Virus record (IMG/VR): IMGVR_UViG_2695420685_000022
Coordinates: 1 to 34,422 of that record
Strand: one strand, 5' to 3'
DNA: 34,422 nucleotides
Source: a virus
Lineage: Duplodnaviria > Heunggongvirae > Uroviricota > Caudoviricetes
This document shows, in pieces, positions 21,001 through 27,000 of this stretch. The stretch's first letter is position 1. Each line of letters opens with the position of its first letter. A program made the position numbers.

Positions 21001-24000
21001 AAACCGTATCTGACGCACTGAAAGCACTGAAAAAAGCCTCTTCACATGTGGTGGCAGCTCGCCTTGGAATCAGTCGTGAAGAGGCTGTCAACGAGCTGTG
21101 GGAACTCAAAAGAAAAGGCGTCGTTGATAAAACTGGTCACACCTGGTTTCTGGCTGGCGAAGGTGAATCCCGGGTAACCGAAGAGCGGCCAGTAAAATCT
21201 GAAGCACAGGATATGCTGACCGGGGAGGTCGAACAAAAAGTTACCGCAGACATGATGATTGAGTTTATCGGTCAGGATGGGGCTAAAACGTGTGAGGAAC
21301 TGGCGGGTAAGTTCGGTGTCAGTACTCGCAAGGTTGCTTCCACGCTGGCGGTGGTAACCGCAACGGGGCGGCTGGCACGCGTTAATCAGAACGGTAAATT
21401 TCGTTACTGCATGCCGGGCGATAATTTACCAGCAGAGCCGAAAGCCGCGCTGGTAACGGAAAGTGATGGTAAGGCCTTTCCTCAGCCAGCAGGTGCTGCG
21501 TTACCAGTCCGGGAAGCCGCAACACAGGAAGAAATTAAAACAGAAACTGTGGCGGACATTGTGCAGCCGTTGCCATCGTTTACCGAAACGCAAGCAGATG
21601 AGCTGATTTTTCCGTCCCTTCGCAGGGCAAACCTGGCGCTGCGCAGGGCGAAAAGTGATGTTCAGAAGTGGGAGCGAGTCTGCGCCGCGCTGCGGGAGCT
21701 GAACAAGCACCGGGATATTGTTCGACAGATTACTGATTCTTCCCGCCGTGTTGTATCGGAAAAGTGATTGCCGGAGGCGCTTATGGCAAAAGTATTTACA
21801 CAAGAAGAGCGGGAAAAAATTAAAGGGCAGGTTGTTGAACTTGTACGTCTGAGCGGTCGCGAGACGTTGCGGCAACTGGAAGCCAGGACAGGTGCGACAA
21901 GATATCTGATGAGTGTTCTCGCCAGAGAGCTGGTTGCCAGTGGCGATGTATACAACTCTGGTTACGGGTTATTCCCGTCTGAACAGGCGCGTAAGGACTG
22001 GCAAAATGCTCGCAAAAAACTCTCAAGGGCAAAGGTGAAGAAACCTGCAGTGGTTGATCCGGACCTTATCTGGTCGTTACCAGACGGCGAAATACGCCGC
22101 TACGACAGGCGCCTGAATATAATCTGTCGCGAGTGCCGGAAGAGCGAAGCTATGCAGCGTGTACTGGCATTTTATCAAGGAAATGTTAGATATTTTAGAC
22201 GTTACTAGATTAAAGAGCATTAGTTCAGATGTGAATTGACATTTTCATGGCGCAGGGTAGAGCCAGCGTGGTTGTCCGCTTTGCGTCAAAACCAGATATT
22301 ACCAGATTTAGACATATATTCCCGATAGCCCTGCTCTGATGCTACACTCTGTGCTATTTTCATGACCCCAATAAAAATATTTATGACTATTGCTGATTTC
22401 AAACGGCCTAAATTGGAGCTTCCAAACGGGGCAAACAAACTACTACTGCACTCTTGCTGTGCTCCATGTTCCGGTGAAGTGATGGAGGCGCTTCAGGCCT
22501 CGGGAATCGACTACACCATCTTTTTCTACAACCCGAACATTCATCCTCAGAAAGAGTATTTAATTCGTAAGGATGAAAATATTCGCTTTGCTGAACAACA
22601 CGGCGTGCCGTTTATCGATGCTGATTACGACACCGACAACTGGTTTGAACGTGCCAAAGGAATGGAATGGGAGCCTGAGAGGGGGATCCGTTGTACCATG
22701 TGTTTTGACATGCGTTTTGAGCGGACAGCGTTGTACGCTGCTGAAAATGGTTTCAGTGTGATCAGTAGTTCACTGGGCATTTCACGCTGGAAAAATATGC
22801 AGCAGGTTAACGAGTGTGGGCGGCGAGCTGTTGCGCATTATCCGGGTATGGTGTACTGGGATTATAACTGGCGCAAGCAGGGCGGCTCGTCCCGTATGAT
22901 TGAAATCAGCAAGCGCGAAAAATTCTATCAGCAGGAATATTGTGGCTGTGTGTATTCTCTGCGCGATACCAATCTACACCGCAAATCTCAGGGACGCCCT
23001 CTTATCAAAATTGGCCAACTCCACTACGGAAAAGAAGAGAAGGAGTGATTTTATGGATCACCTTTCTGATTGATTTCATATTGGCGAGGTGACGTGAGTT
23101 AAGTAGAATTGCTGCGGGTGCCTGAGGCTGTCTGCCTCAGGCATGAACACCAAAAGGCAGATAGAGAAAGCCCCAGTTAACATTACGCGTCCTGTAAGAC
23201 GCTCAACATTAATCTGAGGCATATGGATGCGGATGAAAGAATTAAATAAATTCAGAGTGATAGACCTCTTTTGTGGGGCAGGTGGATTATCTTATGGTTT
23301 TCTTCATGGAGAGATGTCTGACTACTTTGAAAGTATCCTTGCTATTGATAATAATGCTGCAGCTATAAATACCTACAATGCCAATTTTGGTTTGCATGGA
23401 GTTCAGGCAAATATTGAGGAGTGGGCATCCAGCAATACTGTTCCTGAGGCTGATGTGGTCATAGGTGGCCCCCCGTGTCAGGGATTCAGTTTATTGAATA
23501 AGAATCGTTATGGTGATCACCGAAGAGCATTGTGGGAGCCTTATATGGATGTCATTGAGCGTTCAAGGGCTTGTATGTTCGTCATGGAAAATGTCCCCGG
23601 ATTGCTGATAAGCGATGAGTTTGCGGACATTACGTTTAGAGCGAAATCCATGGGCTTTATTCTGCTTAATCCAATGGTGTTGAATACTGCTGACTATGGA
23701 GTACCTCAGACAAGAAAACGAACGATAGCAATCGGTATCAAACGAGAACTCTTCGATGTGCATAGTATTCCGGCGTTCCCGCCAGCACCAACGCATCGTT
23801 CCCCTGATAAGGATGTCGCTTTGCCTGAATGGGTCTGTACGCGTGATGCAATTGGTGACTTACCTGCTCCTGTTGGAACTGATATTCGTAATGAACTTCC
23901 TCCGCTGAACTTACATTTTGGGCGTAATCCCACTCCTGTTTCTCTGGAGCGATATAAAGCGGTTCCACCAGGAGGTAACCGTTTCGATTTACAGAAAAAA

Positions 24001-27000
24001 AGACCTGATATAACCCCGGCGTGCTGGCTAAAAAAGAAATCTGGAGGGACCGATTTGTTTGGACGTCTGTGGTGGGACAAACCTTCAGTAACGATTCGTA
24101 CTGAGTTTTTCAAACCGGAGAAAGGGCGATATTTACATCCGGAAGAGGATCGGCCAATAACTCATCGTGAGGCAGCGAGATTAATGTCTTTTCCTGATAA
24201 TTTCATTTTTACCGGTTCAAAAACTGAGATTGCAAAGCAGATCGGGAATGCTGTTCCACCGCTATTTGCGGCAAAAATCGCACAATATGTGTATGGAGTT
24301 TTGCAGGGACGGTATAAGAATAACATCAGTAAGAATAGTCAAGCAGCCTGAAGGAAATCCAGAAATGAATGGAGATTTGGTTGACAGCATAGTTGGTTTT
24401 GCTGAAGCCAGAAAGGAGTTTCATGCCCAATTGTTACTGAATACGCTCACAATTAATACTGCCGGAGTTGTTAGTAACGCAGATAGCAGTAACAAAAACA
24501 GTAAAGCTATAGCAAGAGAAATTGCTCGCTTCTTGCAGGCTGAAACGATTGGTGAACGTGTTGCAGGGCAAACATCTGGTAATCAGTTTGAGAGTATCTG
24601 CGCAGAGTTTATAGAAAAAACCTTTTTTAAACTCAGCCACTTACGCCCTGGAAAATGGAATGTACATCAGGTTTCTGGTAGAAACAGATTAGAGATAGCT
24701 AAATATGAACAATATGCCCATCTTATAGCATTGGATAGTGCTGCAAAAAGTAATCCTCAGCTAGCTGCTGCACTGGGGAGTGATTATACGATTTCACCAG
24801 ATATTATTGTTGAAAGAGAACCTGAATGTGATCAAGTTATCAACAGTCCTGAATTACTGGTGGATGATTCTGTTACCCGCATGTCAGCTCTCAGGAGTTC
24901 GAATGGTGGGAAACCAATATTACACGCAAGTATTTCCTGCAAATGGACAATAAGAAGCGACCGGGCCCAGAATGCTCGTTCTGAGGCATTAAATCTTATT
25001 CGCAACCGTAAGGGAAATCTCCCTCATGTAATGGTTGTTACTGCTGAGCCTACTCCAAGTCGTCTGGCGTCTATTGCTCTTGGTACTGGTGATATAGATT
25101 GCGTGTATCATTTTGCGCTTTATGAACTTATATCAGCAGTTGAAATACTGGGGCTCAGCGATGCAGCTGACATGCTTTCCGTGATGGTTAATGGTAAAAG
25201 ATTAAAGGATATTTCTGATCTTCCCTTGGATCTTGCAGTCTGACATCTCTACGTAAATAGAGTCTGTCATATTTTAACTGTGATGGCACGTCATTGACTT
25301 CAGTACATTTTTACTAACCCGCTTCGCGGGTTTTGTTTTTTCCTGGCATTCTGGTTTACAATCCACACGCCAGCCTGAACAACTGGCACCTGCTGCGCCA
25401 GCAGAGACAACCGATGGCGCACAATACCAAACACCACAATTCTGATGCCGACCCTGCCAGCAGACACGGACGGCGCTCTCACGCATTCAAATATGACTGG
25501 TACCAGCATGACCAATGCACTGAAGAACAGGCCGAGTGGCTGATTCAGAATTACCGCAGACGTGGATACCAGTTTCAGAAAGGCCTCAATCCTGACTTCC
25601 GACACTGGATAATTTCCGTCAGGCTCCCTTATTCCGAACGCCCGCCGCGTCCGTCCCGCACATATCAGCAACGCATCTGGAGGTAACGTGCGGGTATTAC
25701 TTCGACCTGTTCTGGTACCGGAACTCAGTCTGGTTATCGTTAAGCCAGGCCGTGAATCAATGTCAGTATTCCATAACGGCAGAATATTGGTGGAACCGGA
25801 ACCCAAAAACATGCGCAGTCTTCCGTCCGGCGTCGTTGCAGCCGTTAGCCAGCCGTTGGCTGAGGATAAAACATTACTACCATTTTTCAGCGATGAGCGG
25901 GTAATTCGTGCAGCAGGTGGTGCAGGTGCACTGTCTGACTGGTTATTACGTCACGTGAAATCCTGCCAGTGGCCACACGGCGATTATCATCACAGCGAAA
26001 CAGTCATTCACCGTTACGGTACCGGCGCGATGGTGTTGTGCTGGCACTGTGACAACCAGCTGCGTGACCAGACATCCGAATCACTCGAGCAACTTGCTCA
26101 TCAAAACCTGTCAGCATGGATGATTGACGTCATCGGTCACGCAATAAGCGGTACGCAGGAGAGGGAGTTATCGCTGGCCGAATTATCCTGGTGGGCGGCC
26201 TGCAATCAGGTGGTGGATGCACTACCTGAGGCAGTAGCGCGTCGTTCTCTGGGATTACCGGCGGAAAAAATCCGCTCCGTATACCGTGAAAGCGACATCA
26301 TACCGGGAGAACAGACCGCCACCAGCATACTGAAGCAGCGCACAAAAAATATTGCGCTACCGCCTCACACCCACCAGCAACAGAACCCACCACAGGAAAA
26401 GACGGTGGTCAGCATTGCCGTTGATCCGGAGTCTCCGGAATCCTTCATGAAACGACCTAAACGTCGCCGCTGGGTAAATGAGAAATACACACGCTGGGTA
26501 AAGACACAGCCGTGTGCGTGTTGTGGTAAGCCAGCGGACGATCCTCATCATCTGATTGGTCATGGTCAGGGTGGAATGGGAACAAAATCCCACGATATTT
26601 TCACGCTACCGCTGTGTCGGGAGCATCACAACGAGCTTCATGCGGATCCGCTGGCGTTCGAAGAAAAGCATGGTTCCCAGGTTGATTTAATTTTTCGTTT
26701 TCTTGATCACGCCTTTGCGACTGGCGTGCTCGGGTAAAAGAGGTGACTGATGCTCATAGAGTTTGTTTTGCCTTACCCGCCGACGGTGAACACCTACTGG
26801 CGACGTCGTGGCAGCACATATTTTGTATCAAAAGCCGGTGAGCGTTATCGCCGGGCTGTGGCGCTTATTGTTCGCCAGCAGCGGCTGAAATTAAGCCTGT
26901 CCGGAAGGCTGGCGATAAAGGTGATTGCAGAGCCACCGGATAAGCGTCGTCGCGACCTGGACAACATTCTGAAAGCACCGCTGGATGCGCTGACGCATGC

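Follow-up and report, generated by a model that had tools for sequence, protein, structure and literature searches.

The locus analysed here lies in an E. coli lambdoid prophage (Rac/Qin-like) in a window of 34,422 nt. Three ORFs lie on the plus strand where the preliminary description had placed them, with the replication genes, DUF1627 and DUF977 to their left and a small hypothetical gene, DUF968, RusA and a DUF1133 (Q-region) gene to their right. They are queH (22362..23048; 228 aa from the first ATG, 221 aa from the RefSeq start at 22383), a gene for a C5 cytosine DNA methyltransferase, M (23227..24351; 374 aa, or 372 aa from the RefSeq start at 23233), and a gene for a type II restriction endonuclease of the NgoMIV family, R (24365..25243; 292 aa). 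The R start, with AGGA in front of it, lies 13 nt past the M stop; a TTG-extended R ORF from 24230 is an artefact, NgoMIV and its relatives aligning from the ATG at 24365. A scan of 22100-25500 revealed a single terminator-like hairpin (25316-25332), followed by a T-run to ~25341, and no terminator between queH and M. On the plus strand of 23049-25315, M and R are the only ORFs of at least 60 aa. No ORF of controller size is present, and in this size range neither M nor R is accompanied by the small HTH controller ORF expected of C-protein-controlled type II restriction–modification (RM) systems, in line with the earlier statement that no controller protein is present. The genes had also been described as more AT-rich than their neighbours. 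The GC content of 22209-25413 (0.442) is indeed below that of the left flank (0.519), the right flank (0.501) and the whole window (0.484), but 7.8% of sub-windows of equal size reach this value or fall below it (window minimum 0.41). With queH, at 0.472, near the window mean, M (0.441) and R (0.416) alone are clearly low in GC; the AT-richness is real but modest.

The first gene product belongs to the QueH/DUF208 family of cobamide-independent epoxyqueuosine reductases, as proposed. It matches Pfam PF02677 over its full length (1.1e-65; profile positions 1-174 of 175), contains the CCAPC motif and aligns with the T. maritima QueH structure 7LC5 (8e-22), including the cysteines of the CC, CxxC and CGC groups (C32, C33, C111, C114, C194 and C196). 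It differs from the T. maritima enzyme by N-terminal and C-terminal extensions of ~25 aa each, and by being prophage-encoded in a host whose pathway already includes QueG (PMC5372724). QueG depends on cobamide; its alternative is QueH (PMC6461909, PMC5372724). As a stand-alone passenger, queH would most likely give the lysogen a second, cobamide-independent route to finish queuosine in its tRNA, beside QueG. The gene is carried by 995 of 5,426 complete E. coli genomes (~18%). The preliminary description had relied on the 228-aa protein being a DUF208 member and not a common conserved phage gene; it is a DUF208 member, but queH is common, and this part of the description loses its novelty.

R aligns over its full length with PF09015 (NgoMIV_restric; 1e-126, profile positions 1-275 of 275) and over residues 5-286 with NgoMIV of Neisseria gonorrhoeae (PDB 1FIU/4ABT; 1e-118, 66% identity), which was alone in being matched by phmmer at E<=0.01. 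The PD...SxK...E arrangement noticed earlier is present (the PDx46-53Kx13E motif is described in PMC3413111), and all 13 residues checked are conserved (D34, S36, Q63, E70, D140, S185, K187, R191, S192, D193, R194, E201 and R227 in NgoMIV numbering). According to the roles reported for NgoMIV (PMC6326814, PMC3413111), these include the catalytic residues E70, D140, S185-x-K187 and E201 (window E76, D146, S191, K193 and E207), the R-S-D-R reader of the CCGG core (window R197-S198-D199-R200) and the outer G:C readers D34, R227 and Q63 (window D40, R233 and Q69). The conservation of RSDR and of D34, Q63 and R227 supports the CCGG-core target anticipated from the motif spacing and allows it to be narrowed to GCCGGC; a G/CCGGC target is thus likely. 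R is an NgoMIV orthologue and most likely shares with NgoMIV the tetrameric type IIF architecture (PMC3413111) and cleavage at G/CCGGC. Cfr10I and Bse634I (R/CCGGY) and SgrAI belong to the same fold family as R, likewise use RxDR to read the core and cut in front of the first C (PMC3413111, PMC2532715), but the outer-base residues of R match NgoMIV and not the degenerate readers of Bse634I. Gene order in the NgoMIV system is likewise M then R, with a short gap. Unlike that system, the window operon lies in a lambdoid prophage, inside a hok/sok remnant. A single GCCGGC site occurs in the 34 kb of the window (9-11 expected), and the control palindrome GGCGCC is likewise depleted (2 against 7.6 expected). 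Because GCCGGC is rare and enzymes of the NgoMIV type are most active when two sites are available, defence against coliphages could be weak.

M matches PF00145 (4e-54) and TIGR00675 (5e-45) and carries the canonical C5-methyltransferase motifs reported previously, namely I (FCGAG at 15), IV (PC at 83, within GGPPCQGFS), VI (ENV at 121), VIII (QTRKR at 161) and X (GNAV at 340). The usual partner of the R family is a PCPPFS-type C5 methyltransferase of ~318 aa encoded directly upstream (72 of 79 relatives). Unlike the methyltransferase of the NgoMIV system, window M (374 aa, PCQGFS) represents another C5 lineage, with 28% identity to the canonical partner over 181 aa and 44% over 52 aa. In other hosts, the partners of M relatives are an HNH protein and a protein without a Pfam match; the TRD of the lineage is 73-81% conserved while the partner nucleases differ. 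The M target is not readable from sequence. M would have to protect at least GCCGGC, the predicted target of R. An orthologous pair occurs in a Klebsiella michiganensis prophage (locus L205), with M and R both 79% identical to their window counterparts. It shows the same hybrid pairing, low GC (0.44/0.41) and position just upstream of a DUF968 gene, but lacks the hok leader and terminator remnant and has DinI-like and LexA-like genes as neighbours. Since its DNA is only 72% identical to the window, the Klebsiella locus is not the direct donor. The equal divergence of the two proteins is an indirect sign that M and R form a functional, cognate pair.

M and R are framed by the two ends of a hok/mok/sok locus. 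The retained 5' end (23051..23220, plus strand) carries the promoter region, followed by the mRNA leader with the mok Shine-Dalgarno (SD) sequence; in phages Evi and HannyBb, DNA 91-93% identical to it immediately precedes mok/hok. Against the RM-less relative JJ2434, the window is 99.4% identical over 21000-23220 and the match resumes at 25315, with hokD in between in JJ2434. A foreign plus-strand block of 2,094 bp (23221..25314), made of M, R and a 71-nt tail (25244..25314), stands in place of exactly the 287-bp mok/hok core of Evi and JJ2434. The tail is homologous neither to hok loci nor to the Klebsiella orthologous locus. Both breakpoints are identical in comparisons with Evi, JJ2434 and strain A34, and the left one only in that with HannyBb. 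A promoter-like site, TTGGCG-17-TAGAAT (23081..23109, plus strand), which by position is the hok mRNA promoter, and the intrinsic terminator AACCCGC-TTC-GCGGGTT plus T-run (25316..25341, plus strand) are common to the chimeric window and the intact JJ2434 locus; the terminator is also shared with Evi and HannyBb. Between the promoter and the block, the plus-strand leader remnant (23116..23220; 105 nt) contains a 5' hairpin (~23118-23144) and, apparently, the region paired by Sok RNA in intact loci. Its last element is the mok SD (GAGG at 23216-23219), and the M ATG follows 7 nt after, at about the spacing of the mok ATG in relatives.

These retained elements (promoter, leader, mok SD and terminator) are 91-99% identical to those of the intact loci compared, and they occupy the same position on the phage map as the hok/sok loci of lambdoid prophages, such as hokD of Qin and hokW-sokW of Sp5 (PMC8621323). 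Unlike those loci, the window lacks the Hok toxin ORF (about 50 aa), the overlapping mok ORF, the 3' fold-back elements and the presumed sok-promoter stretch. By position, the part complementary to the Sok 5' end and the sok promoter region appear to be missing; a consensus scan located no sok promoter in the window or in the intact loci. The sok/hok-leader model of Rfam, RF01794, scores 61 bits at the window leader (gathering score 59), with just model positions 1-88 of 157 aligned, against 113-120 bits and a full match in intact loci. The hok/sok ends in the window are a remnant used as a platform and not a toxin–antitoxin system. The strong terminator that had been assigned to the insert does exist as a hairpin with a T-run, but is a hok remnant and not insert-borne. 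Similarly, 153 bp of intergenic DNA (22209..22361) do precede queH and belong to its cargo module, but the 178-bp spacer between queH and M is resident hok/sok DNA. Among viral contigs with this leader, 3 of 119 carry the RM pair at the identical junction, and all others run into mok/hok. The gene set is ordinary and already annotated; the architecture is undescribed. Both the replacement of a toxin–antitoxin core by RM genes and the non-canonical lineage of M had escaped the preliminary description.

Taken as a whole, the explanation that we consider probable is that an RM operon replaced the mok/hok core of a resident hok/sok locus, with queH as a separate passenger. The swap removed the toxin, mok, the presumed sok-promoter stretch and the 3' fold-back elements; left in place were the hok promoter, the 105-nt leader, the hok terminator and the mok ribosome-binding site, which would now serve M. 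Most likely, M-R would be transcribed in the lysogen from the hok promoter, which is weak and constitutive. Read-through from queH or PR is also possible, because no terminator separates queH from M, and M-R may be transcribed mainly in this way rather than from the hok promoter. For translation, M would use the mok SD and R the AGGA in front of its own start. The pair would restrict incoming unmethylated DNA and, as other type II RM pairs do, penalise prophage loss, one addiction module having been exchanged for another; hok/sok regulation and RM addiction are established background (PMC3874152). According to its predicted fold, the chimeric leader has the mok SD and both candidate start codons of M in paired regions, with a mean unpaired probability of 0.16, about that of the translationally inert full-length hok mRNA (0.18) and below that of the intact leader alone (0.53). 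If this fold is real, translation of M from the mok SD could be poor, which would be awkward for a safe RM system.

Such sequestration of the SD and start codon would fit a pair that is decaying or silent, with R inactive or unexpressed, left as a passive remnant of an accidental hok replacement, and M effectively an orphan methylase. The missing controller protein, the rarity of target sites in host and phage DNA and the presence of the pair in only 1.1% of genomes would fit as well. We nevertheless hold silence to be improbable. Neither ORF is truncated, and in the RefSeq records listed both bear intact product names; the catalytic and recognition residues of R are all conserved, and 59 of the 60 E. 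coli copies of the RM pair are at least 99% identical, across O157:H7, O111, O103 and O39 backgrounds. In Klebsiella, the two orthologous genes remain undisrupted at 79% identity each, which implies purifying selection on the pair. In the one IS-carrying RM example examined, the IS lies at queH and R is spared. The system might also be functional with a specificity other than plain GCCGGC, either through a broader M (e.g. RCCGGY or CCGG) or through drift of R to a related CCGG-core site. The distance of M from the canonical partner methyltransferase (~28% identity), the different nucleases paired elsewhere with its lineage despite the conserved TRD, and the existence of related enzymes with the same core and different specificities (PMC3413111) point in this direction; for R, identity with NgoMIV at all residues reported to read the CCGG core and the outer G:C argues against it. 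We regard a different specificity as unlikely; if only M were broader, replacement of the mok/hok core by an RM operon would still hold.

A further alternative is that of the preliminary description, which saw one AT-rich cargo insert of three genes with its own upstream region and terminator, QueH perhaps working or being co-selected with the RM pair, a tie that it left open. In its favour, the three genes follow one another on one strand with no terminator between them, their GC is below that of the flanks, and they travel together in 57 genomes. However, just 60 of the 5,426 complete E. coli genomes have the RM pair, in every case as one chromosomal copy, and ~935 genomes have queH without it; conversely, the RM pair occurs without queH in at least one genome, that of strain A34, and likewise at the Klebsiella orthologous locus. 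The RM-less relatives JJ2434 and HannyBb have an intact hok/sok locus downstream of queH, and the queH-M spacer and terminator, being hok-locus DNA, are present in RM-less phages. The GC of queH, near the window mean, also speaks against a common origin with M and R as one island. Co-occurrence is thus not consistent (queH in 995 genomes, RM in 60, both in 57), and queH lies upstream of this hok locus in just 11 of 107 viral contigs. Therefore, queH is separate from the RM pair, a common prophage passenger without a functional tie to it, and a single three-gene insert, contradicted already by these counts, is very improbable. The stretch consists instead of two independent modules, unrelated passengers that adjoin in a variable slot between the replication/DUF977 and DUF968-rusA-Q genes. 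Within the intergenic region upstream of queH, the match to HannyBb begins at 22267, and that to phage Evi, which lacks queH, stops at 22291.

The RM-in-hok unit appears to have had one origin and then to have spread. The short retained hok ends could serve as homology arms, by which the unit would recombine into the hok loci of other phages. In strain A34, the same RM unit has recombined into the hok locus of another phage, with a flank 99% identical to contigs with intact hok. The crossover is visible inside the leader, ~20-25 nt ahead of the SD; to the right of the unit, resident-type sequence runs from the terminator loop onward.

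In the virus record, a restriction–modification (RM) operon replaces mok/hok, the toxin gene and overlapping ORF of a hok/sok type I toxin–antitoxin (TA) locus, ORF-for-ORF, while the TA promoter, leader, Shine–Dalgarno (SD) sequence and terminator are kept; the arrangement appears undescribed. An ORF search gives three ORFs on the + strand of 22209–25413. The first, queH (22362–23048, +), encodes 228 aa matching PF02677 at 1.1e-65 over 174 of 175 profile positions. It is followed by M (23227–24351, +; 374 aa), a C5 DNA methylase (PF00145, 4e-54), and by R (24365–25243, +; 292 aa from ATG), which covers all 275 of 275 positions of NgoMIV_restric (PF09015, 1e-126). 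Pfam is unambiguous for all three proteins, in line with the preliminary description, whose placing of the genes between replication functions and the DUF968/rusA/Q genes also holds: the left-hand neighbours are a DnaC-like ATPase, DUF1627 and DUF977, and those on the right are DUF968, RusA and a DUF1133 gene together with a small hypothetical gene. NCBIfam and PADLOC are concordant with Pfam for M and R, and the RefSeq names are ‘epoxyqueuosine reductase QueH’, ‘DNA cytosine methyltransferase’ and ‘NgoMIV family type II restriction endonuclease’. A longer, TTG-initiated R ORF from 24230 overlaps M and was rejected; since its extension is not shared by NgoMIV and relatives, ATG 24365 is the biologically sensible R start. 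At the gene level nothing is new, as annotation pipelines, including NCBI's, already name all three genes.

The replacement is delimited by homology on both sides. On the left, 23051–23220 is 91–93% identical to the DNA directly 5′ of mok/hok in phages Evi and HannyBb; on the right, the sequence from 25315 onward is 88% identical to the DNA directly 3′ of hok in Evi. The two hok ends are separated by 287 bp (mok/hok) in Evi and in E. coli strain JJ2434 versus 2,094 bp here, a block (23221–25314) made of M, R and a 71-nt tail. The left homology continues through TTAATCTGAGGC and stops at 23220. The GAGG at this junction is the SD preceding the mok ATG in intact loci, and the M ATG (23227) lies 7 nt past it, at about mok's spacing. 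The right homology restarts at the hairpin AACCCGC-TTC-GCGGGTT and its T-run, and this is the sole terminator-like site (25316–25332 plus T-run) in 22100–25500. Therefore, the strong terminator credited to the insert in the earlier reading exists, but it is the hok terminator. The 71-nt tail between the R stop and this terminator (25244–25314) shows no match to hok loci or to the orthologous locus in Klebsiella.

Rfam model RF01794 (‘sok antitoxin’) scores 113–120 bits on intact loci and 61 bits on the window, where only model positions 1–88 of 157 align. Its matches (23116–23296 in the window and 4350–4525 in comparison locus L004) are on the hok-mRNA sense strand. In these loci the model begins at the 5′ end of the mRNA and reaches the hok ATG, and it effectively describes the hok leader, not the antisense RNA itself. 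A promoter-like site, TTGGCG-17-TAGAAT, is located at 23081–23109 and is found at the equivalent place in JJ2434. In the mok-hok-sok family, a stable mok-hok mRNA is made by a weak promoter, and the antisense Sok RNA overlaps the mok start (PMC3874152). The sok promoter must thus lie in the replaced DNA; its loss is deduced from position only, since a consensus scanner does not detect this promoter even in intact loci.

The three genes had been proposed to form a single AT-rich cargo island, with QueH possibly tied to the RM pair. This is contradicted by the distribution of the parts among 5,426 complete E. coli genomes: queH alone is found in 995 (∼18%), the RM block in 60 and the whole stretch 22209–25413 in 57. 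All RM block copies are chromosomal and single-copy, and 59 of the 60 are ≥99% identical. Relatives devoid of RM genes carry queH followed by hok. This is the case in the ST131 strain JJ2434, whose backbone is 99.4% identical to the window up to 23220 and reads DUF1627-DUF977-queH-hokD-hypothetical-DUF968-rusA-Q, and in phage HannyBb, where queH precedes the mok/hok gene. Strain A34 carries the RM pair without queH, behind different cargo. Among the 107 viral contigs with this hok locus and enough upstream DNA to judge, queH lies upstream of the locus in only 11. Given these widely differing distributions, queH is a prophage passenger that is common and stands on its own, and the RM pair is another, rare one; the co-occurrence counts do not support a functional link between them. 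As to base composition, the region does have a lower GC content (0.442) than its flanks (0.519 and 0.501) and the whole window (0.484), but queH (0.472) is close to the window average, and a clear AT bias is confined to M (0.441) and R (0.416). The dip is real, yet 7.8% of equal-sized sub-windows have GC as low, so that it was discarded as proof of foreign origin.

The stretch holding queH (∼22292–23050), which separates DUF977 from the hok locus, is a slot with variable cargo. It holds a regulator and a putative acetyltransferase in phage Evi, and a ‘sce7726 family’ plus ‘beta family’ gene pair in A34 and several viral contigs; in comparison loci L002 and L005 it corresponds to 2331–4000 and 1873–3508. 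In strain OkiPb01684 (781–2653 of its locus), an IS3-family element lies just upstream of, or extends into, the queH 5′ end; QueH is annotated there as 201 aa, and M and R stay intact.

How the RM unit travels can be read from the hok ends. The leader end AACATTAATCTGAGGC is held by 119 viral contigs, three of which run into the RM block at an identical junction; the remainder continue into mok/hok. The RM block is the sole alternative to mok/hok in this set, no other cargo being seen in the hok slot. The three RM-positive contigs have the same queH backbone as the window. Strain A34 represents another phage lineage, and its DNA upstream of the locus shares 99% identity with viral contigs that have intact hok. 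In a three-way alignment, the A34 leader shows resident-lineage polymorphisms until ∼20–25 nt before the SD, then becomes window-type (GCTCAAC, not GTTTAAC) and enters the RM block; on the right, the sequence is resident-type again from the terminator loop onward. This leader switch, together with the resident right end, indicates that the RM unit moved into the hok locus of a second phage. From these alignments, the transfer is best read as recombination within the short retained hok sequences, and the whole pattern as one replacement event followed by spread via the hok ends, a mode of spread by TA remnants that appears undescribed. In the search for a donor among 185,579 species-representative genomes, R had no match above 78% aa identity, and the closest M plus R pair (Klebsiella) has just 72% DNA identity.

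R is a close relative of NgoMIV, with 66% identity over 281 aligned residues. NgoMIV is a type IIF tetramer that cuts G/CCGGC; recognition of the CCGG core falls to its RSDR motif and that of the outer G:C to Asp34 and Arg227, with Gln63 in contact with the outer C (PMC3413111, PMC6326814). All 13 checked positions (E70, D140, S185, K187, E201, R191-S192-D193-R194, D34, S36, Q63 and R227) are the same in R. With the catalytic and specificity residues all conserved, GCCGGC is the best predicted target of R.

The methyltransferase is less expected. The usual partner in the NgoMIV family is a C5 MTase of ∼318 aa with motif IV PCPPFS, encoded directly upstream of the endonuclease. This type, recognized in the L006 comparison sequence, was found directly upstream in 72 of 79 close endonuclease relatives in a tblastn census of species-representative genomes. 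M, with its complete set of canonical C5 motifs, is only ∼28% identical to this enzyme. Thus, M is not the usual partner of the family, and the non-canonical pairing appears undescribed. Relatives of M (66–80% identity) occur among Enterobacterales and further Gammaproteobacteria. A prophage of Klebsiella michiganensis again pairs M (79%) with an NgoMIV-family R (79%); that pair has low GC as here and adjoins DUF968, without a hok remnant. The partner of the M relative differs elsewhere, being an HNH protein in a Yersinia P2-like prophage and a protein without Pfam match in Salinicola. The target recognition (TRD) region of M is 73–81% conserved across the Klebsiella, Yersinia and Salinicola relatives. 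Between E. coli and Klebsiella, M and R have diverged to the same extent, which indicates, at the level of sequence comparison, a co-inherited and probably working pair.

In the Yersinia kristensenii P2-like prophage (2472–6092 of its locus), the M relative (74% identical) and the 330-aa HNH protein adjoin a PvuRts1I-like/SRA protein and a HicB antitoxin, between a gpA-like replication gene and the portal gene. This site has the look of a defence hotspot; for the M lineage, the HNH protein is a possible alternative nuclease partner.

GCCGGC is rare in the window. A single site, at 18880, occurs in 34,422 bases, and none lies inside the RM block or queH, against 9–11 expected (11.1 by a Markov estimate; 8.8 ± 2.9 by first-order simulation). 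Avoidance as an RM signature was nevertheless ruled out, since the unrelated control palindrome GGCGCC is depleted too (2 versus 7.6 expected). The depletion is therefore not specific and seems to reflect a trait of the host as a whole. With few targets available, an enzyme that acts on two sites may hold back coliphages only weakly.

In the proposed working of the locus, M and R would be transcribed in the lysogen from the hok promoter, possibly with added read-through, as no terminator lies between queH and M. Translation of M would start from the former mok SD and that of R from its own AGGA, 13 nt past the M stop, and transcription would stop at the hok terminator. The pair would restrict unmethylated incoming DNA and, as is known of other type II RM pairs (PMC3874152), penalize loss of the element. 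A membrane toxin under RNA control would thereby give way, in the same place, to a module for addiction and defence that acts on DNA. In the predicted fold of the chimeric leader (23116–23290, +), the mok SD and both candidate M starts are paired with the upstream leader (MFE −55.6 kcal/mol, z = −2.95). The unpaired probability is 0.16 in the chimeric leader, 0.53 in the intact leader alone and 0.18 in the full-length hok mRNA. This pairing is a thermodynamic prediction and may be meaningful or accidental.

A further layer of control is conceivable, in which Sok RNAs from sibling hok/sok loci would act in trans and repress M translation through the retained target region. The leader keeps ∼45–50 nt of the Sok-complementary region, including the SD that is now that of M. 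In RM-positive genomes, the queried stretch has matches at 2–7 places per record and, because queH and the RM block are almost always single-copy, the one to six further matches can only be hok-derived. However, the target segment for pairing with the 5′ end of Sok has been lost to the replacement, which makes such repression improbable. If it did occur, the M:R balance, restriction strength or post-segregational killing would depend on the other prophages present, and the RM system would be wired into a type I antitoxin RNA network.

Expression from the hok promoter and mok SD, as proposed for the M–R pair, would make the locus a natural swap of addiction modules at the same address and a controller-less way to express an RM pair. 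It would also suggest a possible role as landing pads for defence genes for the hok/sok loci that are so abundant in E. coli prophages; the hok leader matches up to 4,143 of the 5,426 E. coli genomes. The architecture matters as a type II RM operon grafted onto a type I TA expression platform in place of the toxin, and moving between phages by leftover TA ends. In addition, it implies that an NgoMIV-type nuclease can coexist safely with an MTase of an unrelated C5 lineage. In the literature searched, no paper was found on RM genes inside a hok locus, on an NgoMIV-type system in E. coli prophages or on prophage-borne QueH in E. coli, which is absence of evidence. The QueH encoded here aligns with the T. 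maritima structure 7LC5 at 8e-22, with the CC, CxxC and CGC cysteines conserved. The host enzyme QueG belongs to a cobamide-dependent family, to which QueH is an alternative (PMC6461909, PMC5372724). With ∼18% of E. coli genomes carrying a cobamide-independent queH on prophages, tRNA modification would be subject to lysogenic conversion.

Two prophage segments make up the window, a mosaic that no complete E. coli genome covers in one piece. A prophage in strain B19374 is 100% identical to positions 1–16281, and 16283–34422, where the RM pair is located, derive from another, Rac/Qin-like lambdoid element; strain E110019 matches the window only at 20160–28673. The first segment has adjacent Rfam matches to isrK (9722–9798, +; 58.7 bits) and C4 antisense RNA (9823–9910, +; 78.8 bits), which look like a P1/P7-like antisense immunity element. 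In the second, three copies of a segment of ≥300 nt (28053–28394, 28674–29015 and 30581–30922; 81–100% identity) flank tRNA-Met(CAT) (29961–30036) and tRNA-Arg(TCT) (30117–30193); the matching region of E110019 is in and around another gene for a DNA methyltransferase, the second one, located past the Q region on its downstream side. Finally, Rfam gives a match to the STnc100 sRNA at 33543–33715 (+; 104.7 bits), a family also present in phage Evi at the equivalent late-region position.
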